IMG/VR virus record: IMGVR_UViG_3300026382_000001
Reading direction: 5' to 3' (one strand)
DNA: 64,000 nt
Source of the DNA: a virus
Lineage: Duplodnaviria; Heunggongvirae; Uroviricota; Caudoviricetes
Part shown: positions 9,540 through 63,158 of the stretch, one piece after another
Layout of the letters: each line of letters starts with the position of its first letter
Numbering within the stretch: the stretch's first letter is position 1
Position numbers and translations under genes: made by a program
The notes under the pieces: generated by a model
Told to the model about the DNA's origin: nothing
The model's input: the letters and a program-made list of their open reading frames with translations, nothing else
Databases searched by the model: none

Positions 9540-9548
9540 GGCTGATAA

Positions 9549-9857: not shown

Positions 9858-9866
9858 GGAATATTT

Positions 9867-10154: not shown

Positions 10155-10303
10155 AGGAGATAACATGTTACAGAAACATAGACAAAGTACGATAGATGAT
10201 TTCTGTTCAACGGTTATCGATTGTACTTATATAGAAAAAAAGATAAAAAAAGTTCGGTTGAAGTTCGCGCGAAAACCAAAAAAGGTTCAATTGTTGTTAA
10301 ATT

Positions 10304-10354
10304 TAACGACAGGAGAATCAGAGAAATAATTGTATAGATAATACAATTATTTCT
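10304..10354 (-). terminator. Hairpin plus TCCTGTCGTTA motif between convergent units
   Basis: 13-bp stem AGAAATAATTGTA/TACAATTATTTCT; motif downstream on the - strand. Confidence 0.6.
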
Positions 10355-10368
10355 TCCGACAATTTTTA

Positions 10369-38159: not shown

Positions 38160-38388
38160 TAACTATTCATAGTGCGTGGTATTAATAGTTAACTATTAAT
38201 AGTTGTTTGTTTTTAAAATCTCTAGCTAACAGATTTTAAAATAAACTTAAAATCAAAAACCAAGTCCCCTATTTTCCGGTGTTATAAAGGATTGAAAATT
38301 TAACTATTTCTTAAATTTTAGGTTTTAAAATTTTTTGTCTTTTTGAAATAACTGGCTATAGTAGGTTAGTTGACACTATGACTAGTTA
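38160..38388 (+). repeat. 229-bp intergenic repeat, copy B
   Basis: Matches copies A and C; ends TAACTATTCATAGTG / CACTATGACTAGTTA. Confidence 0.93.
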
Positions 38389-38445
38389 TTTCATAGTTAT
38401 AGTTCCATAGATATTATTACTATTAAAATAAATTAGGAAAAAAAT

Positions 38446-47001: not shown

Positions 47002-47214
47002 ATGTTTCAATTTAGATATTCATTTAAAGAACAGGTTCGAGCAGTATTTTCCAATAAGATTAAATATTTAGATATTTGGGTTGGTCGTTTAGAAGACTTT
47101 GATAAAATAGAATTTTTCTTCTTTTGGTTAAAAATTACAATTCAAAAAAATAAAAATAAAAATAAAGAGACCAATCGTAAATGTACTTTTGGTCCAGATG
47201 GGAGTTATGTATGA
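47002..47214 (+). CDS. Hypothetical protein
   Basis: ORF with RBS. Confidence 0.55.
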   Translation: MFQFRYSFKEQVRAVFSNKIKYLDIWVGRLEDFDKIEFFFFWLKITIQKNKNKNKETNRKCTFGPDGSYV

Positions 47215-48242
47215 TAGATAACAGAGCATGGTTTATGAAATATAAGCCTAATAATATAGAGGAATTAGTATTTCCAAATACCTTAAATGGTAGTCCAGCA
47301 AAACCGGAAGATATCAAAGCAATGTTTTCAAATGCAGTAACTAATCAATTTATTCCAGGTAACGTGTTAAGCTATGGTCCTGGTGGTTTTGGGAAGAGTT
47401 CACTTGCTGATGTACTTGTTAAAAGTATTATCAAAGAACCAAAAGATTTTCATAGACTTGGTAAAGGTGTTGATGCTGTAGAGGAATTAAAAGCTTGGTT
47501 AGTTTCTAAACCTGGTAGAAGTAATCAAAAGATTGTTCTTATTGAGGAAGCTGATAAATTAAGTCCACAAGCACAGAATATGCTTAAAGACGGACTTATG
47601 GAAAAATATCAAAGTTATGTTTCTTTCATAGCAAATACAAACCACCCTCATAAATTAGATCCAGCATTAAGAACTCGTTTTAATATGCAGTTAAACTTTA
47701 AAGAAATTCAAGCCGAACAAGCATTTTATTATATTATTGGAGTTCTTGATAAAGAAGAAATTCAATATAATAGAGATTATGTTTGGGAATTTGTAAATAA
47801 ACATATTCAAAAAGGGTTGAGAGTTCTTCTTAACAATATTGAAATAAATGTTAAAGATAAAGTACTTATGAATATTGGAGAATTAGAAAGTTCTAGTAAT
47901 CACGAAGATTATATTTTTGATTTATTAAAATATCTTATAGGGTATGCCGAAGCTCAACCAAAAGAAAATCTTGCTAAAATTTTAGAAAATGTTGATAACG
48001 ATCCACAATTTGCTCAATATTATAAGGCAATTCTTGATACGACTAAAAGCGATCTTAATTTAGATTACGATTATATTTTTAATATGTTACTAGATGAAAA
48101 TTTTAGCATAGATATCAAAAACGTTATCATAGAGAACTATCAAGATATAGATAATAAAAAGTTCCCGAACTTACATTTAGTAAGTACTATTGGAAAACTT
48201 TTATTAAATATTTATCAACGTAAGGGAGGTATTCCGGAATAA
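47211..48242 (+). CDS. Clamp loader AAA+ subunit (RFC/gp44-like; start revised)
   Basis: WFMKYKP, GPGGFGKSS, IEEADKLS.QAQ, ALRTRF. Confidence 0.88.
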   Translation: MIDNRAWFMKYKPNNIEELVFPNTLNGSPAKPEDIKAMFSNAVTNQFIPGNVLSYGPGGFGKSSLADVLVKSIIKEPKDFHRLGKGVDAVEELKAWLVSKPGRSNQKIVLIEEADKLSPQAQNMLKDGLMEKYQSYVSFIANTNHPHKLDPALRTRFNMQLNFKEIQAEQAFYYIIGVLDKEEIQYNRDYVWEFVNKHIQKGLRVLLNNIEINVKDKVLMNIGELESSSNHEDYIFDLLKYLIGYAEAQPKENLAKILENVDNDPQFAQYYKAILDTTKSDLNLDYDYIFNMLLDENFSIDIKNVIIENYQDIDNKKFPNLHLVSTIGKLLLNIYQRKGGIPE

Positions 48243-48288: not shown

Positions 48289-48699
48289 ATGAGAAGAAAA
48301 ATAAAAAATGAAATAGATTTTATTTTAAATAGCTCTAAAAAAAATAATATAGTGTTTATGGAATTTATTGATTTATACCCAGAATTAAAAATGGAAGAAT
48401 TTGAAAAATTCTTCAATGTTTATAAAAATAGAAACTATAAATATACAGAACATTTAAAAACCGATGTCGGAGCAATTTTTGATTTTTTCAGACGTGCTGA
48501 AACGAATAAAATTTTTAATATACAAAGATTTTTTAATATAGATACGAATGATTGGGATGATTCTGATTATGGGGAGTATTTTTTTAATCTCAGACACAAT
48601 TGGAATAGTGTTTATGATAAAATTGGTGCTAAAAATATAAACTTATTTTGCAATATAAAAGATGTTCCAAAAATAAAAATTAAATTCGAAGGAGAATAG
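48289..48699 (+). CDS. Hypothetical protein with C-terminal KIKIKFEGE
   Basis: Trp-motif paralog family. Confidence 0.7.
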   Translation: MRRKIKNEIDFILNSSKKNNIVFMEFIDLYPELKMEEFEKFFNVYKNRNYKYTEHLKTDVGAIFDFFRRAETNKIFNIQRFFNIDTNDWDDSDYGEYFFNLRHNWNSVYDKIGAKNINLFCNIKDVPKIKIKFEGE

Positions 48700-48906
48700 A
48701 TGTGTTTTTTTACAGAACGTTTTGGTATTTATTTAAGTAGATGGCTACTCAGTGCATTCGTAATGATGATACCATTAGTATTAATAAATAAATATAGTTT
48801 AACCAAAAAGTTTGGAAAATATAAAGAATATATTGATTTGGTAATAGTTTCTATTATAGGAGCTTTTATATTTTACAACATCGATCAATACATATTTAAA
48901 CATTAA
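48700..48906 (+). CDS. Small two-TM membrane protein
   Basis: Two hydrophobic segments. Confidence 0.65.
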   Translation: MCFFTERFGIYLSRWLLSAFVMMIPLVLINKYSLTKKFGKYKEYIDLVIVSIIGAFIFYNIDQYIFKH

Positions 48907-48925
48907 AATAAAAAAGGAAAAAGCC

Positions 48926-49132
48926 GTGTTAAAGAAAAAAATAAATGAAAGTATAGATAAAGCAGAGGAAATGTTCAATTCTATTATTAAAGATATTGAA
49001 GAAAATAAACCAGAAATTTATTTAAAATTAGTAAGTCAAAATAGACATACTTATAGACCAGTATGGCGAGATGAAGTAATGGTTAACCGATCTCACGAAA
49101 AGGTTCTAGTTAAATTATTAAACTGGAAATAA
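48926..49132 (+). CDS. Hypothetical protein
   Basis: GTG start with RBS. Confidence 0.6.
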   Translation: MLKKKINESIDKAEEMFNSIIKDIEENKPEIYLKLVSQNRHTYRPVWRDEVMVNRSHEKVLVKLLNWK

Positions 49133-49184
49133 AGTAAAGATATAAATAAATAAAGAAAAGTTTAAGAATAAAATATTGCACATT

Positions 49185-49224
49185 TACTTTAAAATAACTA
49201 TATATGTGTATAGATATCTTATAA
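49185..49224 (+). promoter_or_regulatory. Phage promoter (same consensus as 4692)
   Basis: TACTTTAAAATAA-N11-TATAGATATCTTATAA. Confidence 0.85.
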
Positions 49225-49264
49225 TCAGAAAAGATACAATAAGATGAAAGAAGCTTATTATATC

Positions 49265-49440
49265 GGGTTACCGGTCAGGCATAGAGCAGTATGGCAGGTG
49301 GTATTAGGATTAATACATTATCAATAGTATATTGGTACAAGGGATTGTACTAGCGTAAAAGCAAGATATACAATAGATTGATAATGGGATTAATACTTAG
49401 TACTACTTGGCTTACTACCTCGAAGCAAGGCGCGGGACCA
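49265..49440 (+). ncRNA. Candidate ~175-nt rod-shaped ncRNA
   Basis: Nested stems CAGGTGGTATTAGG/CTTAGTACTACTTG (many G-U pairs), ATTAAT/ATTAAT, CATTATCAAT/ATTGATAATG, GTATAT/ATATAC, GGTACAA/TTGTACT; no ORF; GC-richer than its flanks. Confidence 0.6.
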
Positions 49441-49474
49441 TTTTATGCTTACTTAAATTAAAAAAGGAAAATAA

Positions 49475-49846
49475 ATGAATTTAGAAAAACCATACTTAAA
49501 TGAAGAAATTTGTTTTTTAGAATGGTTAATTATTTTTTCTGAAAAAACAGAAGGATACGAATTAGCTTATAAAAATTTTTTACATAATATTTCTTTATTA
49601 TCCTCATATAAAAAAAAGAGATTATATAATAAAAATTTACACCCAACCCAATATATAAATTTACATGCTCATTGGAGTAAAACTCAGGAAGGATATAATT
49701 ATTGGAAAATAGTAAATGATGAATGGAAAACTGTTTTATACGATATTGAAAATTATGAAGATCACCCGGAATATAACGTAAAAAAAATATTCTTTAATCA
49801 TTTACCAAATACTAAAAAATTAAAAGTTAAATTCGAAGGAGATTAG
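49475..49846 (+). CDS. Trp-motif family protein (WxxTxEGxxYW) with C-terminal KLKVKFEGD
   Basis: HWSKTQEGYNYW. Confidence 0.75.
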   Translation: MNLEKPYLNEEICFLEWLIIFSEKTEGYELAYKNFLHNISLLSSYKKKRLYNKNLHPTQYINLHAHWSKTQEGYNYWKIVNDEWKTVLYDIENYEDHPEYNVKKIFFNHLPNTKKLKVKFEGD

Positions 49847-50185
49847 GTGAGAGTAAATATAATAGAATGGTTAACTGATAAGTATAATTTTAATATTAAT
49901 TTATTAAAAAAAGAAATAAAATTTTCACATATGCATAAAAATCTTGGCAATTATTCCAATAAAAAAAATTGTTCTGAGATTAATGGTCTAACGAGAAATA
50001 AGAACATAATTGACAGATTGTTTATATGGAATCATTCTGATAAAACGTTTTCTAGTAAATTTTTTATTATTGATCAAGATTGGAGATGTTTTTCTGAAAT
50101 TAATAAATTGTTAGATGAGGATGTATATTACGATTTTAATTTTTTTAAAAAAGAAAAATTAAAAATCAAATTCGAAGGGAATTAA
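49847..50185 (+). CDS. Trp-motif family protein with C-terminal KLKIKFEGN
   Basis: IIEWL...FIWNHS...DQDW. Confidence 0.7.
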   Translation: MRVNIIEWLTDKYNFNINLLKKEIKFSHMHKNLGNYSNKKNCSEINGLTRNKNIIDRLFIWNHSDKTFSSKFFIIDQDWRCFSEINKLLDEDVYYDFNFFKKEKLKIKFEGN

Positions 50186-50186
50186 A

Positions 50187-50398
50187 TAACTATTCATAGT
50201 GTCAACTAACCTACTATAGCCAGTTATTTCAAAAAGACAAAAAATTTTAAAACCTAAAATTTAAGAAATAGTTAAATTTTCAATCCTTTATAACACCGGA
50301 AAATAGGGGACTTGGTTTTTGATTTTAAGTTTATTTTAAAATCTGTTAGCTAGAGATTTTAAAAACAAACAACTATTAATAGTTAACTATTGATAGTT
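50187..50398 (-). repeat. Intergenic repeat, copy C (inverted, one end truncated)
   Basis: Reverse complement of copy B. Confidence 0.93.
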
Positions 50399-50442
50399 GT
50401 TTGAAATAAAAAGATATTAAATTTGATAAATAAAGGAAAATT

Positions 50443-50787
50443 ATGAAAAGAAAAATAATAACATTATACGAATGGTTAATACAAAATTATTCGTATGATA
50501 TAGCCAAAAGATTTACTTCGAATTTAAAGTATCGTAACTTTTGTTCCAAACTAGACATACCAGGTGGTGATAGTGTGGAATATATTAATTATTCTTTTGA
50601 GTGGGAAAGTACTCCAGAAGGCTATAATTTTTGGTCGTATGTTAATGAATCGTGGCTGAATTATATTAGTAGTTTAGAACGCTTAAAATTAGTTTTAGGA
50701 GTTAATTATGAAATTAGTTATGGTAAATTACCATTAAATAAAGAAACTAGTGGTTTAAATAATATAACCACTATTGTATTTAATTAA
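50443..50787 (+). CDS. Trp-motif family protein
   Basis: FEWESTPEGYNFW. Confidence 0.75.
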   Translation: MKRKIITLYEWLIQNYSYDIAKRFTSNLKYRNFCSKLDIPGGDSVEYINYSFEWESTPEGYNFWSYVNESWLNYISSLERLKLVLGVNYEISYGKLPLNKETSGLNNITTIVFN

Positions 50788-50804
50788 ATAAAAAAGGAAA
50801 TAAA

Positions 50805-51533
50805 ATGTCTGAAAAAAAATATATATTTGTACTCCCAAGAGAAGTAGAAGATGGTTTAATGAAATTTGAGGAAGTAACTTTTAAAGGTATTGTTTATCAA
50901 CAAAAATATTTAGAAATTACTAATTCTAGAATTGATCATGATTCGATGATGGAACTCCTTCGAAAAGGATATCCAGAGGACTGTTTTGAAGAATTTTTAG
51001 ACCCAAAGGAAAAATTCAAAAAAAAAATTACTAAGTATGTTAATAATATTTTTGAAGCTCAAGAAACATACAAAAATATTATTATAAAAGTGTTTGGTAA
51101 TAATAAAGAATTTTATTTACTTTATGATAAAAAAGATAAAGTTTTTTACAAGTATACTAATCTTAATCCAGTCCGAACCGGATTAGGTACTGGAAATGAA
51201 GAGGGATATCTATACAATTTTTTAAATAATCAGTATAATATTTTTGGTGAACATTTAGATATTAATGTATTTATACAACCAAAAGAAAATATGAAATTAA
51301 TATTTACGAAAAAATATAAGTATTATATTACTTCTAAAAAATGCGTTTGTAAAACAACTGGTTCTGGGGCTGGACAAATTACCGGTTGGATTGATAAATT
51401 ATCCGATGATAATAAATCAATTAATAAAAAATATAAAAAAATTGATTCGGTTAGATGTATAATTCCGGAAGTTATTAAAGAATTAACTACTGAGAAACAT
51501 CCAATTAATCATTTAATTAAATCGGAGTATTAA
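50805..51533 (+). CDS. Hypothetical protein
   Basis: 242-aa ORF with RBS. Confidence 0.7.
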   Translation: MSEKKYIFVLPREVEDGLMKFEEVTFKGIVYQQKYLEITNSRIDHDSMMELLRKGYPEDCFEEFLDPKEKFKKKITKYVNNIFEAQETYKNIIIKVFGNNKEFYLLYDKKDKVFYKYTNLNPVRTGLGTGNEEGYLYNFLNNQYNIFGEHLDINVFIQPKENMKLIFTKKYKYYITSKKCVCKTTGSGAGQITGWIDKLSDDNKSINKKYKKIDSVRCIIPEVIKELTTEKHPINHLIKSEY

Positions 51534-51534
51534 G

Positions 51535-52356
51535 ATGCTAGAAAGAAAAGATTTAGAAATATTAAAAGAGATTAATGGAAATACTCGTATAATATCGGAT
51601 ACTCATTTTTTTCATGATAGAGTTTTTCTTTTTGAAAGATCTAGATTAGATTTAGTTCTCGAACATCCAGAACTTCCAGAAAAGTTTATTAAAGTAATAA
51701 AAGATTTCTTGTATCAGGATACAGGAAGAACTCATAAAAAGTTAGAAAATATTTCTAAAGAATTAATTGAATATCATAATGATATGATAATTAGAAAATG
51801 GAATGATGTAATTAAAGACGAGGATCTTATTATATGTATGGGTGATTTTGCCTGGAAAGGTATCCAGGAAATTATACCAAAACTTAATGGTAAAAAAATA
51901 TTAATTCTGGGTAATCATGATAGAAGTGGTTCAAATTCTTATCCAAATTTTACTGTAATTCGGGGACTGGTTAAAGTTCTATTTTTAGAAAATGGTAAAA
52001 TGATTATAAGAGAAGTTCCTGGAAAAGATAAAGACGATTTATTCAGCACTTTAATTATTAATAATTCTATATTTAGTCATTATCCAATTTCGGAGTACGA
52101 AAAAGAAGTTTCTAGACGAGGAAAAAATGAAAATATAAATCTAAGAATCGATAAGTTAATTCATATTGTAAATAATGATAATACTATTAAATTTAATTTT
52201 CATGGTCATACACATTCTAGAAATATAAATCCGTTTGGAGAAAAATTTAATTTGAAATATTTTAATTGTTCATGTGAAAGAGTAAATTTTACTCCTAAAA
52301 AATTATCGGATTTTTTTATAGATAAAGACGATTTAGAAATATTCGAAGGAAATTAA
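51535..52356 (+). CDS. Calcineurin-like metallophosphoesterase
   Basis: SDTHF, MGDF, GNHD, SHYP, HGHTH. Confidence 0.9.
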   Translation: MLERKDLEILKEINGNTRIISDTHFFHDRVFLFERSRLDLVLEHPELPEKFIKVIKDFLYQDTGRTHKKLENISKELIEYHNDMIIRKWNDVIKDEDLIICMGDFAWKGIQEIIPKLNGKKILILGNHDRSGSNSYPNFTVIRGLVKVLFLENGKMIIREVPGKDKDDLFSTLIINNSIFSHYPISEYEKEVSRRGKNENINLRIDKLIHIVNNDNTIKFNFHGHTHSRNINPFGEKFNLKYFNCSCERVNFTPKKLSDFFIDKDDLEIFEGN

Positions 52357-52357
52357 T

Positions 52358-52738
52358 ATGGGAATTGTGAAAATATTTGTATATGGTTCTTTAAAAAATA
52401 ATTTTGAAAATAATGATATTTTAAAGAAAATTGGTACATATAAGACAAAGGCTAAAACAGTTAAAAAATTTCCAATGGTTATTAATGATAAAAATGGTTT
52501 TGTAAAATTTCCATATTTACTAGATCAGGAAAACACTGGTTTATTTATTAATGGAGAAGTTTGGGAAATTCATCATACTAAATTAAAAGTATTGGATGAT
52601 TTTGAATCTGAATTATTTAAACGTGGTATAATAAGCGTTATAGATGAAAATGATAAAATATATACAACACAAGTATATTTTAAGAACAAAATTATCGATT
52701 TTAAATATGAGGATTTAATTTATGAATGGACAGAATAA
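52358..52738 (+). CDS. Gamma-glutamylcyclotransferase (AIG2-like)
   Basis: IFVYGSLK, GEVW, LDDFE. Confidence 0.85.
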   Translation: MGIVKIFVYGSLKNNFENNDILKKIGTYKTKAKTVKKFPMVINDKNGFVKFPYLLDQENTGLFINGEVWEIHHTKLKVLDDFESELFKRGIISVIDENDKIYTTQVYFKNKIIDFKYEDLIYEWTE

Positions 52739-52753
52739 AAAAAAGGAAGAAAA

Positions 52754-53155
52754 ATGTTAAAAGCACATGAGTTAATGTCTGGTAATGTTGATCATAATAT
52801 GAGCGTAATCAAACTTATAAAATCTCGTAATTTTGATCAGGAAAGTAAACAGCTAATTATTAAAAGTTCCGGTACTACTATGAAAAAGAAGTACGGTGGG
52901 CCACAATTATATACTGTTAAAGTAGAGGGTCGAAATGGCGTACCAATAATTACACCAGATACCGAAGTACGGGTGTATTGCAATTGCCATGATTTTATTT
53001 TTAGAAGAGCGTATTGTTTAAATCAAGAAGGTTCTTTATTTATACCAGAAGGATTTGTAGACGCTCCACCAGAAACTACTAATCCAGATTGCCATAAAAA
53101 ATATTGTAAACATATATCAGCAGCTTTAAAGTATCTTATCCAAACAGGTAGATAG
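52754..53155 (+). CDS. SWIM zinc-finger protein
   Basis: VYCNCHDF...CKHI. Confidence 0.75.
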   Translation: MLKAHELMSGNVDHNMSVIKLIKSRNFDQESKQLIIKSSGTTMKKKYGGPQLYTVKVEGRNGVPIITPDTEVRVYCNCHDFIFRRAYCLNQEGSLFIPEGFVDAPPETTNPDCHKKYCKHISAALKYLIQTGR

Positions 53156-53908
53156 ATGATCAACGTGGATGGAGATTTACGAGGCCTAGTTGGAGAAAGA
53201 GAACACACGAACAATTTAAATGAATGGAAATTAAACTATAAATATAACCAAGTTAAAAAATGGTTTGCTTTAAGTTTCCCGACCTTTATAAAAATTTTTT
53301 CATTATTTAAATTATCATTTGTATATATAGCAGATTTTTTAAAATTATATCCACTATATATTTATTATAAATATTTTAAATATGGAATATTTCCAATATT
53401 TTATAAACCTTCGGGTGCCTTTAAGTATATTCATTTTTTCAAAGTTTTTCGAAATATATTTAAACTTAATCCGGTGCCAAGAGACGACTGGTTATTTTAT
53501 ACTCATTCTAATATTTATTTTTTTAAGATAGAATGGAATAATTTATCTAGATTAAACCAAATATCAATATTGTTGAATTATAATATAAGAAAAAAATTTA
53601 AAAATGAATTAATAGAAGACTATAAATATTTTCTTCATCGAGAAGATGGTCCAGCTAAAATTTCAAAAAAATTTTGTAAAATCTGGGCAATATTTGGAGA
53701 ATATCACCGAGAAGATGGTCCAGCCGTCGAATGTAAATATCTAGGTTACCGCCAGTATTTTGTGCATGATAAATTGCACCGAGAAGATGGACCAGCATTG
53801 GAATATACAAACAATGTAAAAAAAAATCAATATTGGATAAATGGAAAAAAATTAAACAAAAGAGAATTTATATCAAAAACATTTAAATTAAATATTAAAT
53901 TCGATTAA
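53156..53908 (+). CDS. HREDGPA-repeat protein with C-terminal KLNIKFD
   Basis: Three (L/Y)HREDGPA repeats. Confidence 0.75.
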   Translation: MINVDGDLRGLVGEREHTNNLNEWKLNYKYNQVKKWFALSFPTFIKIFSLFKLSFVYIADFLKLYPLYIYYKYFKYGIFPIFYKPSGAFKYIHFFKVFRNIFKLNPVPRDDWLFYTHSNIYFFKIEWNNLSRLNQISILLNYNIRKKFKNELIEDYKYFLHREDGPAKISKKFCKIWAIFGEYHREDGPAVECKYLGYRQYFVHDKLHREDGPALEYTNNVKKNQYWINGKKLNKREFISKTFKLNIKFD

Positions 53909-54100
53909 ATTAAAAGGAATAAAATAAATAAGAAAGAATTAATATAGTAATATTAATATTTGAAGAATATTATATAAATTTAATATTAAAAAGTATTTAT
54001 TTTAATTTTAGATTAGTCGATAAACCATAAAATAAAAACTAAATGTAGAGAAACAGTATTATAGATATAATAAATACAGTCTAAAATTCAAAGGAATTAA

Positions 54101-55642
54101 ATGATTACATTAAATTTTAAAGAGTACGAGAGAGTGGATGAGTTACCCGAAGTAACCAATCCGGCAATATACACAAGTAATAAACACAATATCTTTAGCA
54201 AAGATTCATTATATTCCGAACAGATATTTGGACCATTGAAAAATTATAAATGCCAATGCGAAAAATTATTTGGAAGAATTAATGCTGGGGAAGTTTGTGA
54301 TCTTTGTGGAGTTGAATGTGGATTAAGCGATAAACGTAATTCCCAATTTGCTAAAATATTATTACCCGAAGGTATATATATTATAAACCCAGATTTTAAA
54401 AATGCTTTGCAAGAGGTATTTGGTTTTAACGCTATAAAAAATTTATTAAATAAATTTCAATATAACGCTAATAAAGAAAATCCATATATTTATAGTCTCA
54501 GTAAAGAAAAATTATTGAGAACCTCAAAAATATCAGAAAAGGAAATTGGTAATTGTTTAGTTGATTTTCCAGTATTTGATATTAATTCATTAAGATTATT
54601 ATTTAATTTTCTTAAAGATGAATTAAAATCTGAGTATTACTCGATAAATGAAGAAACCGGAGAAGTAATTGAACATCCAGTTACCGAAGAAGAAAAATTA
54701 GAGGAACGTTATAAATTTAGACATTTAATAACTGATAAAATTAATTATAAATATATCAAACATATTTTTATTAATTATATTTTAGTAACTCCTCCTGGTT
54801 CAAGACAGGTTATTAAAATTTCAAACGTAAAAATTATACCACATCCTATTTCAAAAGCTTATATAGAAATACTTAAAAATATTTCTAGAGGTACTAGTAT
54901 TATGGATAATCTTTATAACGCTAATTCAGATTTCTTTGGAAATACGGTATATAAATACCAGCAATCAGTTGACGCTATTTATGATGAAATTCTTCAATTT
55001 AACTTTCAAAAAACTAAGAATTATGTTAGGGAATCATTGACTGGTAAAACAATTGAATTCTCTCAGAGAGCTGTAATTGTTCCTAATCCAGTTCTTAAAC
55101 CTTATCAAATTGGTCTTCCGGAAGAAAGCGTTAAGAAATTATTCTTACCTGAGTTACTTAGATATTTATTTCTTAAGTATGAAGAAAACGAAATTGAAAT
55201 TATAGAAAAAGAGGGGGAAGTTAAATTATTTAGTATAGTTGAATACATTCAATATGTATATGATAGTTTTGATAAAAACTTTGAAATAGCTATACCAGAA
55301 GATGATTTAAGTGATTTTCTTAAAAATTATATTTCTGATTTTAAAATGATTGTTGAAAGACAACCAAACTTATATAAGTGGAGTATGTCTGGATATATGT
55401 TAGCAAGAGCCTATGGGGATTCTAAAAACGAAATTATAGAAATACCGGAATTAGATGGATTATCGGATGATGAAAGATTATTGTATTTTGAAGCACTGCA
55501 AGAAGCTCCAGAATATGTTCGAAAAGGTATTTTAGAGAATAGACCAATGATGAAAATATTTCAAAATAATATGAAATTAGCAGTTACAAAAATTTATAGG
55601 GATAAGATAAAGGATATTTATGGAGAAACAACTAATTCTTAA
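54101..55642 (+). CDS. rpoC: RNA polymerase beta' N-terminal subunit (putative non-virion RNAP)
   Basis: LYSEQIFGP, CQC...CDLC zinc finger, VTPPGSR, SLTGKTIEFSQRAVIVP, ERQPNL. Confidence 0.9.
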   Translation: MITLNFKEYERVDELPEVTNPAIYTSNKHNIFSKDSLYSEQIFGPLKNYKCQCEKLFGRINAGEVCDLCGVECGLSDKRNSQFAKILLPEGIYIINPDFKNALQEVFGFNAIKNLLNKFQYNANKENPYIYSLSKEKLLRTSKISEKEIGNCLVDFPVFDINSLRLLFNFLKDELKSEYYSINEETGEVIEHPVTEEEKLEERYKFRHLITDKINYKYIKHIFINYILVTPPGSRQVIKISNVKIIPHPISKAYIEILKNISRGTSIMDNLYNANSDFFGNTVYKYQQSVDAIYDEILQFNFQKTKNYVRESLTGKTIEFSQRAVIVPNPVLKPYQIGLPEESVKKLFLPELLRYLFLKYEENEIEIIEKEGEVKLFSIVEYIQYVYDSFDKNFEIAIPEDDLSDFLKNYISDFKMIVERQPNLYKWSMSGYMLARAYGDSKNEIIEIPELDGLSDDERLLYFEALQEAPEYVRKGILENRPMMKIFQNNMKLAVTKIYRDKIKDIYGETTNS

Positions 55643-55702
55643 AAAAATATCAAAATACCGATATCGTGGTAAAAATGGTAAGAAAAAAATTTATGAATAT
55701 GA

Positions 55703-55915
55703 ATGGGAGGAAAAAGAATGAAATTAATAGTTCTTGAAAAAATAAGTCCAACTGAAGTAAATCCATGTTTGGAAGAGATTGATTTTCCAAATATGGAATC
55801 ATTTGAATCAAATATAGATGATTCTTGTCCGGATACTTATCTAAATATAAAAGAAGCTAAAGAACTTCGAGATGCATTGGATAAATTAATATCCGATATT
55901 GAATTGGTAGAATAA
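55703..55915 (+). CDS. Hypothetical protein
   Basis: Small ORF in operon. Confidence 0.55.
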   Translation: MGGKRMKLIVLEKISPTEVNPCLEEIDFPNMESFESNIDDSCPDTYLNIKEAKELRDALDKLISDIELVE

Positions 55916-56136
55916 TGAATATCGAGACCAAAAAATATTTTATAGAGACTTTTTCAAATGGAGATGGTATAACCATAACGGTTGATAAAAAATGGGCACT
56001 TGATAAAAAACATGATTTTTATTGGAATCCAATTACTAATATTCTTTTAATAGAATATATTTTTGGTAATAAAAGTAAAACAATAAAAACAACCTGTGAA
56101 AATTTTGGTTGTATAAATATAAAAGGAATAACATGA
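55915..56136 (+). CDS. Hypothetical protein
   Basis: Translationally coupled (TAATG). Confidence 0.6.
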   Translation: MNIETKKYFIETFSNGDGITITVDKKWALDKKHDFYWNPITNILLIEYIFGNKSKTIKTTCENFGCINIKGIT

Positions 56137-56381
56137 CAGATGCTATTTATGTAATAGATGGAAAAGAATATCCATTTAGTATTAGAGAAAATCTCGAATT
56201 AAAATCAGGTCATTTATATTTAAATGATAAAAAAGTATTTGATACATTTAGACGAGGTAGTAATATTATAAACAATATTGTTACTTTTAATGATGTTGAT
56301 ATAACAAGTTACGGAAGAGAATTATTTAATATCCCAGAGGATTATAATAATCACTTCGTTAGAGTGAGTATAAGAGCTTAA
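56133..56381 (+). CDS. Hypothetical protein (start revised)
   Basis: ATGA overlap and AAGGA RBS. Confidence 0.6.
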   Translation: MTDAIYVIDGKEYPFSIRENLELKSGHLYLNDKKVFDTFRRGSNIINNIVTFNDVDITSYGRELFNIPEDYNNHFVRVSIRA

Positions 56382-56382
56382 T

Positions 56383-56877
56383 ATGAAACAGGACAATACT
56401 TTAAATAAATGGACACGCGAATTTATTTCGTGGAGTTTTATAATACTGGTCATTTATTTTTGGACGGTATCGTTGGCTATTTTATTTGGTTTAGTGATTA
56501 TTTTTGGTATTCTTTTTTATGGAATATATAAATTATTCAATCATATTTTAAACTTCCAAAATTTTGAATTAGCCAGAAAAAATAAACCAAAATGGTTTAT
56601 TTTTGGAAATAAACTCTATAATAAAATAGTGGATTATATAGAGCAAAAAGTTAAAGAAAAATCAAAAATTTCAAAAAATGAAATTATTTCGGCTATGGAG
56701 TTTTATGATTTTTATGAAATAGAAGAAGTTACTAAATATGAAATAAAATATAGATGGAAAGAAGTACAAAAAATATGCCATCCCGATTCTGGAATTAGAC
56801 CAAACGTTGAGAAAAGTCAATTGGCTAATAAGTATAAAGATATATTATTAGAGGCGGTAAAACAACGAAATGATTAA
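56383..56877 (+). CDS. Membrane-anchored J-domain-like protein
   Basis: N-terminal TM; C-terminal EIKYRW...KICHPD. Confidence 0.65.
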   Translation: MKQDNTLNKWTREFISWSFIILVIYFWTVSLAILFGLVIIFGILFYGIYKLFNHILNFQNFELARKNKPKWFIFGNKLYNKIVDYIEQKVKEKSKISKNEIISAMEFYDFYEIEEVTKYEIKYRWKEVQKICHPDSGIRPNVEKSQLANKYKDILLEAVKQRND

Positions 56878-57241
56878 CAATATAAACCATAATAAAAAAA
56901 GATTGTTGAATTTAATACCTGATGATAAATTAGAAAATTTTATTAAATTTACAGATCGTAATGGGGACTTTGTTCCACGATATTTAAAATTAATTAAAAA
57001 TGATTGTGATTTAGTTCAGGAAATTAAATTATATTGGGATGAAAATATTAGTTGGTTAGATGATGAAATATTTAATAATATATATAATGATCTTTTTCAA
57101 TTGAAATGTATATGTTATTTTTTTGAGTACTCGTTAGACGATTTACAATGTAATAATAAAATATGTGAAAATTTAGTTTGGCTTAAACATAATATTCCTG
57201 AGAGTTATTGTTCTAGTAATTGTAGAAAAGTGATGAGATAA
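56870..57241 (+). CDS. Cys-cluster protein paralogous to the N-terminus of the next gene
   Basis: DDLQC...C...YCSSNC versus DDLQC...C...FCSLNC. Confidence 0.65.
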   Translation: MINNINHNKKRLLNLIPDDKLENFIKFTDRNGDFVPRYLKLIKNDCDLVQEIKLYWDENISWLDDEIFNNIYNDLFQLKCICYFFEYSLDDLQCNNKICENLVWLKHNIPESYCSSNCRKVMR

Positions 57242-57253
57242 AAAGGAGAGTAA

Positions 57254-58711
57254 GTGAACTACACCTTTGAAAAATATTTTGATAAACGTGGAATATTAAA
57301 TTCCAGTTTATTAAAAAATATAACAATTGAGGAAAAAGAAACGGTTGAAAATTATTTTACCGAATTAAAATTAAATGAAATTCAAGATATAAAAACTGAT
57401 ATCCGTTCAAAAGTTTCATTTTATTTAAATCAATATTCTAAAGATGATTTACAATGTAAAGGAGACAATTGTAATAAAATGGTAAATTTAGCTAATTCTC
57501 GTCCTGGAAGTTTCTGTAGTTTAAATTGCAAAAAGGGAAGTTCTTATTTAGCTAATATTGGTAAAGAAAAATTCTCAGATGCAAGTAGATATAAACAAAC
57601 CGAGACTAAGTTAAAAAAACTCTATGGAGAAAATGCCAAGTATCTATTAAATAAGGAATTATTTATAAAAGAATTTTTAATAGAAAAGGATGGGACTAAT
57701 GAGTGCGATTATACAAAAATAGAAAATATTCTTGGTATAAAAAAAGGAACTGCTCAAAAATATATAAGAAGGTTTGGGTTGGATGTAAAGACAACCCTTG
57801 GTAATCCTGGAACAACCGAACAAGTAATACAGGATATTTTAAATAATAGTATAAAAGCAACTATTTTAAAAAATAGTCGCAAAATACTTTCTAATGGAAC
57901 TGAATTAGATTTTTACTTACCAGATTATAATTTTGCTATAGAAACTAATGGAGTATATTGGCATAGTTATGGAGGAGAAGATAATAAACAACATCAGTTA
58001 TCAAGACATTCTATTAAGGTAGAGGAATCTTATAAAAAAAATATTCATTTATTTCAAATAAATGAAAATGAATTATCAGATGAAAATTTAAAAAGTATAT
58101 GGGAATCTAAAATATTATTAAAATTAGGTTTATTTTCAAGAAAAATATTTGCTCGAAAATGTAAAATAAAAGAAATTTCCTCTAAAATAGCCAAACAATT
58201 TTTAGAGGAAAATCATTTACAAGGGTATGCATATTCTAATATTAAATTAGGATTATATTTTGAAAACGAATTAGTTTCCATTATGACGTTTGGAAAACCT
58301 CGATTTAATAAGAAAATTGATTGGGAATTAATTCGGTCAGCTTCTTTAAAAAATACCTTAATTGTTGGTGGAGCTAGTAAACTATTTAAATATTTTATTA
58401 GACACTATAATCCTAGAAATATATTAACATATGGTAATTGTAGATGGGTAAATAAAAATAATATTTATGATATCCTTAATTTTTCTTTTATTGAAAAAAC
58501 TAAACCAAGTTATTATTATTTTAAACCATCCGATTGGAAATTACATATGATACATAGGAGTCAGTTTCAAAAACATAAACTAAAAAACTTGGAAGAATTT
58601 AAAGAAAATTATTCGGATGATTTGACGGAAGAAGAAATTGTTTTAAATAGCGGCTATAGAAAAATCTGGGATGCAGGACATCTTAAATATATTTGGACAA
58701 AGGAAAATTAA
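57254..58711 (+). CDS. Hef-like homing-type endonuclease between the two non-virion beta' genes
   Basis: ELDFYLPDYNFAIETNGVYWHS; ENHLQG; IVGGASKLF; IWDAG. Confidence 0.85.
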   Translation: MNYTFEKYFDKRGILNSSLLKNITIEEKETVENYFTELKLNEIQDIKTDIRSKVSFYLNQYSKDDLQCKGDNCNKMVNLANSRPGSFCSLNCKKGSSYLANIGKEKFSDASRYKQTETKLKKLYGENAKYLLNKELFIKEFLIEKDGTNECDYTKIENILGIKKGTAQKYIRRFGLDVKTTLGNPGTTEQVIQDILNNSIKATILKNSRKILSNGTELDFYLPDYNFAIETNGVYWHSYGGEDNKQHQLSRHSIKVEESYKKNIHLFQINENELSDENLKSIWESKILLKLGLFSRKIFARKCKIKEISSKIAKQFLEENHLQGYAYSNIKLGLYFENELVSIMTFGKPRFNKKIDWELIRSASLKNTLIVGGASKLFKYFIRHYNPRNILTYGNCRWVNKNNIYDILNFSFIEKTKPSYYYFKPSDWKLHMIHRSQFQKHKLKNLEEFKENYSDDLTEEEIVLNSGYRKIWDAGHLKYIWTKEN

Positions 58712-60759
58712 TGGAAATACGAAAAAATAGAGTAATGGAGTTATCTAACTTAACATCAGTGCTTCACAACCATGATTATGATGGTGATAATGTTATTGCA
58801 GCGGCTTTACATTCCGAAGAAGCAAAGCACGATTTTGCACATATGTTTGTAAATAACAATATTGAATTTGAACAAAGAGATTCGTTATTATTTGATTTCG
58901 AACATGAAGCTATATATGCTAGTTATATGTATACAAAAGTGGCATATCAAAATATAGGATATAATTTTGATACTGATTTTGGAGAAAATGCTTTAGCTTT
59001 GGGAGAAATAGAAGTAATTGTAAAAGACTTCGCTGAACTTAGAGAAAAATATATAAATTTCGATAGTATTAAAGAAAATAATTTAGTAATATCAATTGAT
59101 AATTTAGATATAACTCTTACTTTATCTGATTGGTTAATTAATAGATGTTTACATCCTGCCGATTGGGACGAAACCTCAGATGACTTTATCATTTACCATA
59201 GTTTTGAAATTTTAAATAAAAAAAATCTTACTAAATTACTGTGGAGATTTTATAAAGATTTGAAAGCGAATGGTAGATCAGACGAATTATGGAATCTTGG
59301 ACATGAATTAGATAAATTTTTAATGGAGATTGGGACAACTATAGATTATTGTAACCCTAGTTTTAATTTAAATGACTTTGCTGTAAATTCTGAAAAAATT
59401 ACAGAATATAAAAAGAATCTTATTCAGAACGAACCGTATTTAGCTTTTCATCAAAATATGGTACTATTCGAAGATTATGTTGGACCAGAAGTTAAAAAGA
59501 ATCCAGATAATATTCTTCATCGTGTTTCAGATTCTGGAGCAAGATTGAAATCAGTTCAATTATTAAAAGCAGCGAGTAATACGGGAATTCCTACCAATAT
59601 CTATGGTAAAGCTATTCCAAGAAATATCGAGCATTCCTTGCTTGATGGTTTAACTCAAAAAGAATATTATGAAACTGGAGATAGTGCAAGATTAGCATTA
59701 ATGCAGAGACAAGATAGTATTCCTAGAGGTGGCGAACTTCAAAGAAAATTTTTCTTCAGTACTGGTATTTTACATTTTGAATATGATATTGAAGATTGTC
59801 AAGCTGAAGTTCCAATAGATGAACGTAAAACAATAGATATCGAAATTAAAGATAAGGATCATCTTAAATCATTAAATCATCGTTGGTTTATAAATGAAGA
59901 AACAAAAAAAGATTTTTATATCGATATAGAAACAGAGTGTAAAGATTGGAGAGATTATTTTAGTGAAATGATTGGACAAAGTTGGAGAATGTATTCACCG
60001 CGAAAATGTCAAGTACCGACATTCGGTATTTGTAAAAAATGTTTTGGTAAGAAAACTCCTACTTCTAAACATGTTGGAGCAAGTCTTGGTAGTTATATAG
60101 CAGAGGGTATTATTCAATCTGTTCTTAGAGCGCACCACTTTGGTGGAGCTTTTATTACGGAATTAAATTATAAAGTTTTAGATATTTTAAAAGATTCTAA
60201 AATTATAGCTAAACCAGATGAAACCATAATTGAAACAGCTAAGGAAAATACAGAAGTACTTATAGAATATTTATTTACTAAATATAACGAAAGTGATTTA
60301 GAAATAACTACAACTGATTATAAAGATACTGAAAAAGGAGAATATACTTCGTTAGTATTAAAAGTAATTAACTTACCATATAATGATGACTCTGTAAAAA
60401 TTCTTACCAGTATTGTATCACTTATAGATAAAAATAGAAAAGATGACAAATTTATAGTTCCTAGTGAAATCTATAATTCTTTAGTAGAAGTAATTACACA
60501 AAATGATTTACTTAGTGTTTATTTTGAAATGATTCTTAGTCTTATTTTTTATGACGAAGATGGTAATATATGTAAGTATTCTGATAAACCAGCAACTACA
60601 CAAATTGCTTTAAAAAATATTATTGAAAAACTTGATCCAAAATTATCAATATTTTATAATTTTAGTAATAGAGCCATTGCTAATGTTTATAAAAATGAAA
60701 ATTCTAGTACTGATGGAACCGGACATATGTACAATGAACTACTAGAGATGTATTATTAG
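58711..60759 (+). CDS. rpoC: RNA polymerase beta' catalytic/C-terminal subunit (putative non-virion RNAP; start revised)
   Basis: HNHDYDGD catalytic motif, DSGAR, DGLTQKEYY, GGELQRK, SPRKC...ICKKCFG, QSVLRAHHFGG. Confidence 0.92.
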   Translation: MEIRKNRVMELSNLTSVLHNHDYDGDNVIAAALHSEEAKHDFAHMFVNNNIEFEQRDSLLFDFEHEAIYASYMYTKVAYQNIGYNFDTDFGENALALGEIEVIVKDFAELREKYINFDSIKENNLVISIDNLDITLTLSDWLINRCLHPADWDETSDDFIIYHSFEILNKKNLTKLLWRFYKDLKANGRSDELWNLGHELDKFLMEIGTTIDYCNPSFNLNDFAVNSEKITEYKKNLIQNEPYLAFHQNMVLFEDYVGPEVKKNPDNILHRVSDSGARLKSVQLLKAASNTGIPTNIYGKAIPRNIEHSLLDGLTQKEYYETGDSARLALMQRQDSIPRGGELQRKFFFSTGILHFEYDIEDCQAEVPIDERKTIDIEIKDKDHLKSLNHRWFINEETKKDFYIDIETECKDWRDYFSEMIGQSWRMYSPRKCQVPTFGICKKCFGKKTPTSKHVGASLGSYIAEGIIQSVLRAHHFGGAFITELNYKVLDILKDSKIIAKPDETIIETAKENTEVLIEYLFTKYNESDLEITTTDYKDTEKGEYTSLVLKVINLPYNDDSVKILTSIVSLIDKNRKDDKFIVPSEIYNSLVEVITQNDLLSVYFEMILSLIFYDEDGNICKYSDKPATTQIALKNIIEKLDPKLSIFYNFSNRAIANVYKNENSSTDGTGHMYNELLEMYY

Positions 60760-60793
60760 TACTTCTTTCAATGATTTAGATATTCTTTTAAAA

Positions 60794-60985
60794 ATGGTAT
60801 CTCCGGAAGGTTCATTAAATGATAGAATATCGATGCTTAAAAATGTAGATATGGAACAGGCAACACAAGAACAAAGACGAATTATGCTAGATATGGCTAT
60901 TGATATAATACAAAAAGATCCAGTTTCTTTTTTAGGAAAACCTGAAATAAAAAAAGGGAAAATTGATATTAAGTTCGATAGCTAA
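60794..60985 (+). CDS. Small protein with C-terminal KIDIKFDS
   Basis: 63-aa ORF. Confidence 0.6.
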   Translation: MVSPEGSLNDRISMLKNVDMEQATQEQRRIMLDMAIDIIQKDPVSFLGKPEIKKGKIDIKFDS

Positions 60986-60987
60986 AG

Positions 60988-61023
60988 ATAGTTAACTATT
61001 CATAGTGGTACTATGAATAGTTA
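60988..61023. repeat. REP-like palindrome AACTATTCATAGT-GGT-ACTATGAATAGTT
   Basis: Matches 22128-22172 and the ends of the 229-bp repeat. Confidence 0.8.
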
Positions 61024-61046
61024 TTTAAATAAAAAAAGGATTATAT

Positions 61047-61379
61047 ATGGGAGAGAACATATATTTTATGGATTATATTATACACCATTTTTCAAATTTA
61101 GAGGTTTTAAGAAGAATTTTAATTGAAGGAGGCGATTATAATAATAATATAACATTAGAACAGATATTTGAAAAGGTTAATAATAATTCGGATATTGGTG
61201 AAATTTTTAATACTCATATAAATTGGAGTAATAAATATGAAAGATTGGGTTTTATAAAATCAATTGAATTACACGCAGTCCACAGGGAATGGAGAAGTAT
61301 TGTTGGAAAATGTAAAAACGATGGTGGTAAAATACTTTTTAAAAAAAACATATATAAGTTAAAAATTAAATTTGACTAA
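61047..61379 (+). CDS. Trp-motif family protein with C-terminal KLKIKFD
   Basis: FMDYI...INWS...HREW. Confidence 0.7.
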   Translation: MGENIYFMDYIIHHFSNLEVLRRILIEGGDYNNNITLEQIFEKVNNNSDIGEIFNTHINWSNKYERLGFIKSIELHAVHREWRSIVGKCKNDGGKILFKKNIYKLKIKFD

Positions 61380-61400
61380 TTAAAAACCAAAGGATAAGAA

Positions 61401-62327
61401 ATGGTATTTAGAATTACAAATTATTGTAATATGGGATGCATGCATTGTATGCAAGATAGCACTACTAAGGGTAAGCATGCTACAATGGAAATTATAGATA
61501 AAATGATTAGATTTGCTGAATTAGCGCCCCTAACGACTACTATTCAATTAAGTGGTGGTGAACCGACAGAACATCCGGAATTTATTAAAATTCTTAAAAA
61601 AGTTTTAAAAGCTTTTAGTCCAAGACCAATTACTATTATTACGAATGGTGATGGTTTTTATAATAAGGAACAATTAAAAAAAGTTTTAAAACTTATGCAA
61701 AAATATCCAAATCTTTTAATTCAACTTACATCAGTAAAAGGAATTTATAAAGATCATGATGAAAGAGTTAAGTTTCTAAATAAAAAATTTGATAAAATTA
61801 AAAAAAAATATGGAGATGATGTAGAAAGTCGTATGGTATTATGTGAAACTTTGGATCATGGTATTATACCAGTTGGTAGAGCTTTAAAAAATATTGATAA
61901 GATAAAAGAAGTTTCTTTTATCGCTCAGCGAAAAAGCCCCGCATGTTTTAATATGTATAATTCATTAAGTGAGTATAATGGAGAATTATTTAAAGCCATC
62001 GATTATGTTAAAACTCATAGTTTGACTAGTTTTTGTAAGCCATTGATTAAAGAGGATGGTAAAGTAGTTTTTGGAGAATATGATGCATGCAGTACTATTA
62101 TAGATTTGGCCGAAATTTCTATAGAAAATATGGAAAATATGAATAGTATGAAAGTAGATATTAGCCAAGTGCTTGGACCATGTAGAAGTTGCGTAAATAA
62201 TCAAAATATGGAATCGGTTATAGACCAATACCTATATAAATTTAAACAACCCGAAAAAATTTTAAATATTAAAGATAAAACTAAATTAGAAGCTTTGGAG
62301 GCAATTAAAAAATTAAAAGGAGATTAA
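61401..62327 (+). CDS. Radical SAM protein
   Basis: CNMGCMHC, SGGEP, ITNG; C-terminal Cys residues. Confidence 0.88.
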   Translation: MVFRITNYCNMGCMHCMQDSTTKGKHATMEIIDKMIRFAELAPLTTTIQLSGGEPTEHPEFIKILKKVLKAFSPRPITIITNGDGFYNKEQLKKVLKLMQKYPNLLIQLTSVKGIYKDHDERVKFLNKKFDKIKKKYGDDVESRMVLCETLDHGIIPVGRALKNIDKIKEVSFIAQRKSPACFNMYNSLSEYNGELFKAIDYVKTHSLTSFCKPLIKEDGKVVFGEYDACSTIIDLAEISIENMENMNSMKVDISQVLGPCRSCVNNQNMESVIDQYLYKFKQPEKILNIKDKTKLEALEAIKKLKGD

Positions 62328-62735
62328 ATGCAGGATGGTGGAATAGATCGATCCAAATTTTTTGATATTTATCAGCAATGGTCCAATCTTATAAATAATA
62401 ATGATATTGATCAAAATGGTGGGGTAATCGCTTCGAATAAAAATGGAAGAATGTATTCGGAACATACGATAAAAAAAATGATATTAAATAGTACATATGG
62501 TTCAGGTATTGGAATAAATACTAGTACCATTAGACCAACTTCTTCAATACGATCTTATAATAGAGGGTTAAGTCCAAATTTTATAGCACTAGATGAGGTT
62601 GAAATAACTCCAGAAACATCTGACTTAAATCAATTTATTTCTATCGAATTTAAATTACCCGAGAGTTTATTATCGGATAAATCAGAAAAACCAAAGAAAT
62701 TAAAAATTAATTTTGAGGAGGATGCATATGAATGA
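62328..62735 (+). CDS. Hypothetical protein with PolB-like and terminase-like motif fragments; C-terminal KLKINFEE
   Basis: KKMILNSTYG and RGLSPNFIALDE. Confidence 0.7.
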   Translation: MQDGGIDRSKFFDIYQQWSNLINNNDIDQNGGVIASNKNGRMYSEHTIKKMILNSTYGSGIGINTSTIRPTSSIRSYNRGLSPNFIALDEVEITPETSDLNQFISIEFKLPESLLSDKSEKPKKLKINFEEDAYE

Positions 62736-63000
62736 TTATACAAATTTAGATGAATCAGATACCTCTAAAATATTAGAAGGTATTATAGACAGTGTTCAAA
62801 ATAAAGTAAATTTCTTAAATTTTGAAACATATCGAGGAGAGTGGGATAATAACTGGTTTAATGAAAATAATGATTATGGTATTAAAACTATGTATTATAA
62901 AAAAATGTATTGGAAGAGCGATGAAAATAGGGTTAAAAAACCAACCAAATTAAAGGACATGATTTCACCTGGTATTAATTTTGAGGAGGATGCAATATGA
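62728..63000 (+). CDS. Hypothetical protein ending GINFEEDAI (start revised)
   Basis: GAGGAGG RBS. Confidence 0.65.
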   Translation: MNDYTNLDESDTSKILEGIIDSVQNKVNFLNFETYRGEWDNNWFNENNDYGIKTMYYKKMYWKSDENRVKKPTKLKDMISPGINFEEDAI

Positions 63001-63158
63001 ACCCGGAATATCCAGGAGAAAATTATTATGGTATAAATAGTATATCTAAAGTTATTTCTGCAAGATTAATTTCTGAAAAACAACAGATTAAAATATTAGA
63101 GGAATCTTTAAAAAAAAGAAAAAATAAAAAATTGGATGTTAAATTCGAAGGAGATTAA
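62997..63158 (+). CDS. 53-aa protein ending KLDVKFEGD (not in the ORF track)
   Basis: ATGA overlap, GAGGAGG RBS; translated by hand. Confidence 0.7.
   Translation: MNPEYPGENYYGINSISKVISARLISEKQQIKILEESLKKRKNKKLDVKFEGD

Follow-up and report, generated by a model that had tools for sequence, protein, structure and literature searches.

The subject of this study is a short peptide found at the carboxy ends of a set of proteins encoded by an uncultured giant (jumbo) phage. The DNA analysed, here called the window, is a stretch of 64,000 nucleotides from the IMG/VR virus record IMGVR_UViG_3300026382_000001, and is the reverse complement of bases 25256-89255 of that 167,008-bp record. The peptide, which we call the tail, has the core consensus K-[LI]-x-[IV]-x-F-[EDN] and is carried by about a dozen proteins with at least five body types. 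Conservation and codon use support protein-level selection on the core. We favor, with a probability of about 55%, the reading that the tail is a C-terminal peptide under purifying selection, attached through a variable linker to several unrelated bodies and most likely acting in trans as a short linear motif.

Three relatives were recovered for comparison. L001 and L002 encode RNA polymerase beta' subunits with about 85% and about 72% amino-acid identity, respectively, to that of the window, and L011 and L013 belong to one 204-kb scaffold that is syntenic and more distant.

The C-terminal peptide and its reading frame

How frequent is the peptide, and where does it lie? When all 167,008 bp of the record were translated in six frames, nine matches to the strict pattern [ILV][KDNE][ILV][KN]F[DE] appeared. 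Eight of these are in frame, 0-5 residues before a stop codon, in genes on the plus strand from 48.3 to 63.2 kb. The ninth forms residues 6-11 of the RNA polymerase beta gene (34970-38083, minus strand), whose product begins M-P-K-S-K-I-K-I-N-F-E-N-E, as a preliminary description of this DNA had noted. A looser pattern, [ILV]x[ILV]xF[DEN] within the last 12 residues, is found in nine proteins, whereas its frequency inside proteins predicts 0.83 (Poisson P = 2e-7). The looser pattern is likewise enriched at C-termini in the relatives, with P of about 1e-8 in L001 and about 1e-22 in L011 and L013 together, where 16 of 50 proteins are tagged over roughly 29 kb. For control of the reading frame, a 21-nucleotide DNA weight matrix was built from the tail sites and scanned across this genome. 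No copy read in another frame was found; the extra matches were the tail of 71856-72194, a remnant at 50407-50427, one antisense site and a few weak N-terminal sites. The ten C-terminal peptides listed in the preliminary description are all present at their positions, and its statement that the motif is always in frame is borne out by the scan and by the eight gene-end matches.

A logo of 52 tails anchored on Phe (position 0) has K at -5 in 37 tails and R in four, L or I at -4 in 44, I or V at -2 in 48, and E, D or N at +1 in 48. Between zero and seven residues follow the Phe, most often one (20 of 52) or three (20 of 52). Such a core would alternate buried and exposed residues, like an extended strand.

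The features are listed below; family A is a family of helical domains described in the next section, and the entries for 50407-50427, 50443-50787 and 71856-72194 are additions to the tagged items of the preliminary description.

38051-38071, minus strand: K-I-K-I-N-F-E near the N-terminus of RNA polymerase beta (34970-38083), the sole strict in-gene match away from a C-terminus
48289-48699, plus strand: family A helical protein, 136 residues; tail KIKIKFEGE at 48670-48696; TAG adjoins the ATG of 48700
49475-49846, plus strand: family A protein, 123 residues; tail KLKVKFEGD at 49817-49843; TAG adjoins the GTG of 49847
49847-50185, plus strand: probable family A protein, 112 residues; tail KLKIKFEGN at 50156-50182
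50407-50427, plus strand: stop-bounded tail remnant K-D-I-K-F-D-K, just 5' of the ribosome-binding site of 50443
50443-50787, plus strand: family A protein, 114 residues; variant tail ITTIVFN at 50764-50784
51535-52356, plus strand: metallophosphoesterase (Pfam Metallophos) ending DLEIFEGN, which is not a tag
53156-53908, plus strand: HREDGPA-repeat protein, 250 residues; tail KLNIKFD at 53885-53905; next start 193 nucleotides downstream
60794-60985, plus strand: small protein, 63 residues; tail KIDIKFDS at 60959-60982; a hairpin follows, then the next start, 62 nucleotides downstream
61047-61379, plus strand: family A protein, 110 residues; tail KLKIKFD at 61356-61376; the ribosome-binding site of the radical SAM gene lies beyond the stop
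61401-62327, plus strand: radical SAM enzyme, 308 residues, itself tail-free, among tagged genes
62328-62735, plus strand: small protein, 135 residues; tail KLKINFEEDAYE at 62697-62732; overlaps the next gene start at 62728
62728-63000, plus strand: small protein, 90 residues; partial tail GINFEEDAI at 62971-62997
62997-63158, plus strand: small protein, 53 residues; tail KLDVKFEGD at 63129-63155; TAA adjoins the ATG of 63159
71856-72194, beyond the window: variant tail KLNIIFDT

Is the peptide simply the ribosome-binding site of the next gene, read in frame? Local genes have AAAGGA(A/G) about 7-12 nucleotides 5' of the start. At 48699, 49846, 52356, 62735, 63000 and 63158, a GGAG-type sequence lies 5-10 nucleotides before the next start, within the EG[DEN] or EED codons. 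In five of these cases (48699, 49846, 62735, 63000 and 63158) the stop of the tagged gene directly adjoins the next start or overlaps with it, and the codons after Phe are GAAGGAGAT or GAGGAGGAT, encoding EG(D/E) or EED. These residues after the Phe are present because the next gene's Shine-Dalgarno sequence is read in frame. The preliminary description had proposed as much for EG(D/E), and indeed the trailing residues track the position of the ribosome-binding site and are absent at 53908, 60985 and 61379, where that site lies beyond the stop and the protein terminates right after F-D. The ribosome-binding site explains only the residues after Phe-Glu, however; the core is not derived from it. 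Anything from 0 to about 260 nucleotides may separate the stop codon of the tail from the following start, and the core persists without a close downstream gene, again as first described: it is kept where the ribosome-binding site follows the stop (53908 and 60985, and also 14097 in L001 and 2030 in L011), and 50185 ends in FEGN with no gene directly after it. Nor does the motif originate in generic leaders, an idea that was rejected because leaders aligned on GGA are merely A-rich, with no positional word upstream of AAAGGA.

A more elaborate possibility is that the core is an RNA- or DNA-level signal, such as a translational coupling enhancer, a promoter or a recombination site, that is translated by chance. 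The last three codons hold the GGAG of the next gene, GAAGGAGAT followed by a stop and ATG recurs, and TTC is over-represented in the tails of this genome. Furthermore, inspection of the DNA word finds TAA in both other frames, so that only a single frame can read through. Given those TAA codons, a frame-blind signal should sometimes end the upstream gene inside the word, yet none of the upstream genes does so in about ten copies here, and none was seen to do so in about 25 listed tails of the relatives. The core is also kept where the ribosome-binding site comes after the stop, at 61379 as at the sites named above; generic leaders lack the word; and the junctions at 51533, 53155 and 62327 are coupled without the core. 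The relatives use TTT, which likewise led us to reject a nucleotide-level constraint on TTC. We give almost no credence to such a signal, and as an account of the core it is largely refuted.

Carriers, structure and alternatives

What happens to the tail in orthologous genes? Among orthologues in the three relatives h-x-h-x-F-[DEN], where h is hydrophobic, is retained, with changes that are synonymous and conservative, in series such as KLKIKFD / KLKINFN / AEINFEGD, KLNIKFD / KLDVIFN / KLNINFN, and KLDVKFEGD / ILVKFEGD. The last of these is 62997 and its L001 orthologue, which differ by synonymous GTT to GTA and TTC to TTT changes. The orthologue cluster of 48289-48699 (P0049) keeps KIKIKFEGD, and those of 49847-50185 (P0014, P0035 and P0051) align with family A and retain the tail. 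Orthologues and paralogues of 53156 in L001 and L011 end in KLDVIFN or KLNINFN. The L001 orthologue of 50443-50787 ends in KIEIQFHD, that of 62728 in GIKFDENEDIK, and that of 62328 in KLKINFEGDPNE, preceded by a (PEK)6 linker; the positional counterpart of 60794 in L002 ends in NEIFKFE, and the L013 gene at 16229 ends in KLKIQFEGE. The fast-evolving small orthologues keep the tail best of all; in one example, seven of the last 12 columns are identical versus 15 of 140 others.

The small protein 62328-62735 (135 residues) and L013 16008-16226 (72 residues), whose C-terminus is KLEINFEGD, have in common only the tail and a word, K-x-I-L-N-S-x-Y-G; they are probably orthologues of very unequal length. 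The word resembles motif B of family B polymerases.

Codon use tells a mixed story. The Phe codon of the tail is TTC in seven of ten tails here versus 15-20% genome-wide (P about 1e-4). In the relatives TTC accounts for one of seven tail Phe codons in L001 and two of 12 in L011, so the bias is lineage-specific. Synonymous codons had been offered as a sign of protein-level selection, and this argument is weak inside the genome, where TTC predominates, but holds in the relatives (GTT/GTA and TTC/TTT). Selection on the protein itself, as the preliminary description had it, is sustained by the single reading frame, the variable distance to the next start, the conservation in orthologues, and the Phe and Ile kept in 29 members of family A.

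To what extent are the carriers related? Once the tail was removed, leave-one-out profile searches linked 49475, 50443 and 61047 to one another (E = 5e-6 to 4e-3), with 49475 joined to family A at E = 5e-6. The link of 48289 to family A is weak (E = 0.041), and that of 49847 is not significant; 71856 clusters with L011 members of family A. The HREDGPA-repeat carriers are 53156 and five paralogues in L011. BLAST with the tail removed detected no similarity among 62328, 62728, 62997, 60794 and the L013 singles, nor any link from these to family A or the HREDGPA family. The 204-kb relative has four consecutive small tagged genes before RNA polymerase beta that are, by the same measure, mutually dissimilar. 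Among tagged proteins, none other than the phosphoesterase first listed with them passed a Pfam cut-off; Pfam found nothing in the HREDGPA-repeat protein or in broader family A homologues, and a word-indexed protein search with 61047 returned only the self-match. The original count of about ten unrelated proteins must therefore be trimmed: a single helical family accounts for four or five of them, and the phosphoesterase 51535-52356 drops out, as its L001 orthologue ends in DLEILEGN, with L for F, and its L011 orthologue ends in KKLKDF and lacks the ending altogether. What stands is that there are at least five unrelated body types.

Family A is the most informative of the bodies. It has 71 representatives in a library of 1.8 billion proteins, and most of these consist of a W..T.EG..FW...W helical domain, often in tandem, with no tail. 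About 25 of the 71 are single-domain proteins of 100-136 residues in which the domain is followed by a short strand, a linker and the tail; the linkers, of 4-16 residues, are rich in K, P, N and E. In an alignment of 29 sequences just three residues never vary, two Trp and the tail Phe (F109), and the tail Ile (I107) is near-invariant. The AlphaFold2 model of 61047-61379 made with this alignment has a mean predicted local-distance difference test score (pLDDT) of 90.5, and ten-residue blocks of residues 1-100 average 89-96. The body is modeled as a helical bundle with a two-stranded mini-sheet, residues 5-6 pairing with 96-97, and the last ten residues as coil with a pLDDT of 65. A model of 49475, from a shallower alignment, is similar, with a tail pLDDT below 50. 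Invariant residues in a loose, unpacked end, on a domain that elsewhere exists tail-free, are the hallmark of a short linear interaction motif. Because the tail appears to lie outside the fold of the body, it would most likely act in trans.

Foldseek of the family A model against the PDB gave no match at E <= 0.001. The top rows from VIA-align are death-fold domains (vFLIP DED, AIM2 PYD and CARD) with Z of 3.3-5.1, the top five having root-mean-square deviations of 3.1-3.9 A over 74-82 residues; these Z scores are below the level the tool treats as meaningful for helical bundles. If the likeness were real, family A proteins could be phage decoys of host death-fold immune signaling.

We propose, then, that in a clade of AT-rich jumbo phages the tail is hung, through a variable linker rich in Lys, Pro and Glu, on several unrelated bodies: the helical family A domain, the HREDGPA-repeat family and at least three small orphan proteins. 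The tail would add a strand to a partner, or fill a hydrophobic groove on it. Candidate partners are other tagged proteins or a common protein of phage or host, such as a sliding clamp, a protease or chaperone, or RNA polymerase. Several points weigh against this proposal. In a proteome of 26% GC no residues are commoner than K, I, L, N and F. Many carriers are paralogues or orthologues, so independent acquisitions are few, about five or six. Three tail junctions here have a common 17-nucleotide string, and this, with the TTC bias, indicates that the tail DNA has a recent common ancestor or underwent gene conversion, and did not converge independently. Finally, in the AlphaFold2 models the short strand before the linker pairs with the N-terminal strand, so that a role for the tail in finishing a small sheet in cis is still conceivable.

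Might the tail be the last strand of an inherited hairpin end-piece (h-h-F, a loop, then K-L-x-I-x-F) that has no common reader and serves each protein in cis, for completing the fold or for stability, or in homo-oligomers? Such a piece would have spread from one small gene to its neighbors through duplication, gene conversion and junction recombination. The four or five paralogous carriers, the uniform tail DNA and the paired pre-linker strand all fit this idea, as do the tandem arrays of a relative, where three consecutive genes have identical 21-nucleotide junctions, and a tail remnant beside an inverted-repeat arm, which points to junction rearrangement. Against it, AlphaFold2 leaves the tail unpacked in spite of its invariant Phe and Ile, the loop varies from 4 to 16 residues and includes the (PEK)6 spacer, and the carriers of 53-63 residues, read by eye, are mostly helix-favoring and have no obvious partner strand. 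Moreover, the family A domain has tail-less homologues, and the relatives preserve the pattern of amino acids even where codons have changed. We consider an end-piece of this kind unlikely, though it deserves to be kept in mind.

The rearrangement in question involves a 215-nucleotide inverted repeat, 99% complementary, at 38180-38394 and 50181-50395, which flanks an 11.8-kb block. The right arm starts at 50181, inside the last codons of 49847-50185, so the downstream start that would follow the FEGN end has probably been displaced. The remnant tail at 50407-50427 is 12 nucleotides past the arm and suggests that a small tagged gene was lost in the rearrangement. One and the same hairpin, of the AACTATTCATAGTG ... 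ACTATGAATAGTT type, follows two tagged genes, at 50186-50230 and 60986-61030.

To return to the linear motif, a further step would be to see in the tail an address label for a single hub that handles the whole set of small, otherwise unrelated proteins together, a clade-specific sorting or timing system added to pre-existing domains. Such a hub might be a sliding clamp, an adaptor for a protease or chaperone, or the RNA polymerase of the phage. We put this forward only tentatively, as a possibility that is somewhat doubtful as matters stand.

The radical SAM enzyme 61401-62327 offers a different sort of partner, one for which the tail would be a recognition or modification site. The order of family A gene, radical SAM gene and run of small tagged genes recurs in the window, L001 and L013, and in L002 the enzyme gene again comes after a tagged family A gene, with small genes beyond it that are tail-free. 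Its best named relative is the peptide maturase HxsC (NCBIfam, E = 1.6e-14), but the score is 53.5 bits against a cut-off of 267.9, and Pfam gives only Radical_SAM and Fer4_12, with no SPASM domain. The linkage is synteny among close relatives and not independent co-occurrence; half of the tagged genes are 8-13 kb distant, and there are many other radical SAM genes in the record. A role for the tail as substrate of this enzyme thus seems improbable.

Genome setting and known terminal peptides

The record has 26% GC and a completeness rating of 59%. It contains split multisubunit RNA polymerase genes that are distant kin of their AR9/PBS1 and phiR1-37 counterparts, and encodes a clamp loader (47181-48242), a RecJ-like exonuclease, a QueC-like protein and a split family B DNA polymerase. 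The tagged cluster begins immediately 3' of the clamp-loader gene. The tagged genes are in a replication and transcription block, and shell or capsid genes are not adjacent. We found no deposited phages with DNA similarity to the record. Viral-contig scans for the exact tail-plus-junction DNA word matched no other record, and in a metagenome scan the only matches were two contigs already recovered. Public gene callers confirmed the open reading frames of the window on near-identical contigs, including the 62728 start of the 90-residue gene.

Some further features of the region may be mentioned. An open reading frame at extended coordinates -40709 to -39534 (minus strand, about 39.6 kb before the window) has M-K-I-K-F-E about 30 codons in, which may be its true start; this frame and RNA polymerase beta have tail-like strands at their N-termini. 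Words of the ATAGATAT type recur 5' of many genes on both strands and resemble promoter elements. The membrane protein 56383-56877, which has H-P-D in its helical C-terminal part, was considered as a J-domain protein and rejected, since it has no DnaJ match in Pfam or NCBIfam.

Which known systems does the tail resemble? There is precedent in principle for terminal peptides that bring several proteins to a single partner, in clamp-binding motifs, the tails of T4 and T7 proteins, and cargo-loading peptides. The Lys-rich h-x-h-x-F-acid tail itself, its carriers and the clade appear to be undescribed as far as we found, a full-text literature search having yielded nothing relevant.

Bacterial sliding-clamp-binding motifs are of two kinds, the pentamer QLxLF and the hexamer QLxLxL (PMC4564189), and the C-terminal peptide SEQVELEFD of E. 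coli Pol III alpha binds the beta clamp (cited in PMC4976356). In pattern, the hexameric motif seems to be the closest analogue of the tail. In both cases a short extended peptide has alternate hydrophobic residues, ending in Phe, and the tail has these residues in an exposed peptide tethered by a linker. The Pol III alpha peptide adds an acidic residue after the Phe at the very C-terminus, QVELEFD versus KLKIKFD. Clamp-binding motifs also occur on many different proteins, usually at the protein end, and serve one hub; the tail is likewise found on the ends of many different proteins. There are differences, however. Position 1 of the tail is Lys or Arg (41 of 52) and not the characteristic Gln, which is missing from the residues listed for that position. 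Furthermore, the tail is carried by small proteins of unassigned function and not by DNA enzymes. It also counts against the analogy that in the 59%-complete record no phage clamp gene was recognized, whether by gp45 or DnaN Pfam models. The phage's own DNA polymerase fragment ends differently as well, in LAAFDKLFPKGV.

That polymerase is encoded by two adjacent genes in swapped order, the C-terminal part coming first (72646-73623 and 73624-74706 in extended coordinates); in L014 the split genes are at 10381-11355 and 9298-10377 on the minus strand. The LAAFDKLFPKGV end of the C-terminal fragment resembles the clamp-binding tails of the T4 type. In phage T4, gp43, gp33 and gp55 bind the gp45 clamp through hydrophobic and acidic C-terminal tails, and in T7 the acidic, F-terminated tails of gp2.5 and gp4 dock on the polymerase. 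Here too several unlike phage proteins have one terminal peptide with an aromatic and acidic end, and in the T4 and T7 systems that one peptide reaches one partner. The T4 and T7 tails, however, are acidic overall and belong to known replication and transcription proteins, whereas the tail described here is Lys-rich before the Phe, has up to seven residues after it, and is found mostly on orphan proteins.

Cargo-loading peptides, such as the C-terminal targeting peptides of encapsulins and the encapsulation peptides of microcompartments, offer another comparison, as these are short terminal peptides on flexible linkers with unrelated carriers. The tagged genes differ in being in the replication and transcription block and not near shell or capsid genes.

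Two other kinds of site were considered and set aside. An ssrA-type or other carboxy-terminal degron, or a PDZ ligand, was rejected because the hydrophobic residues are not at a fixed distance from the carboxylate (0-7 residues). Prohead-protease sites of the T4 type have Leu or Ile two residues before Glu; the tail has Lys or Asn at that position, and this candidate was also rejected.

What would a tail of this kind mean for the jumbo phages? Most small genes of these phages are of unassigned function. If a sixth to a third of the genes in one block do encode a selected tail, their products probably work through a common interaction. Finding the partner of the tail could then assign about a dozen orphan proteins to a pathway, and might bring to light a hub of the phage or a target in the host, for example the replication clamp. 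The case is, in addition, a worked example of how, in compact genomes rich in AT, a genuine peptide motif can be told from a ribosome-binding site that is read in frame.

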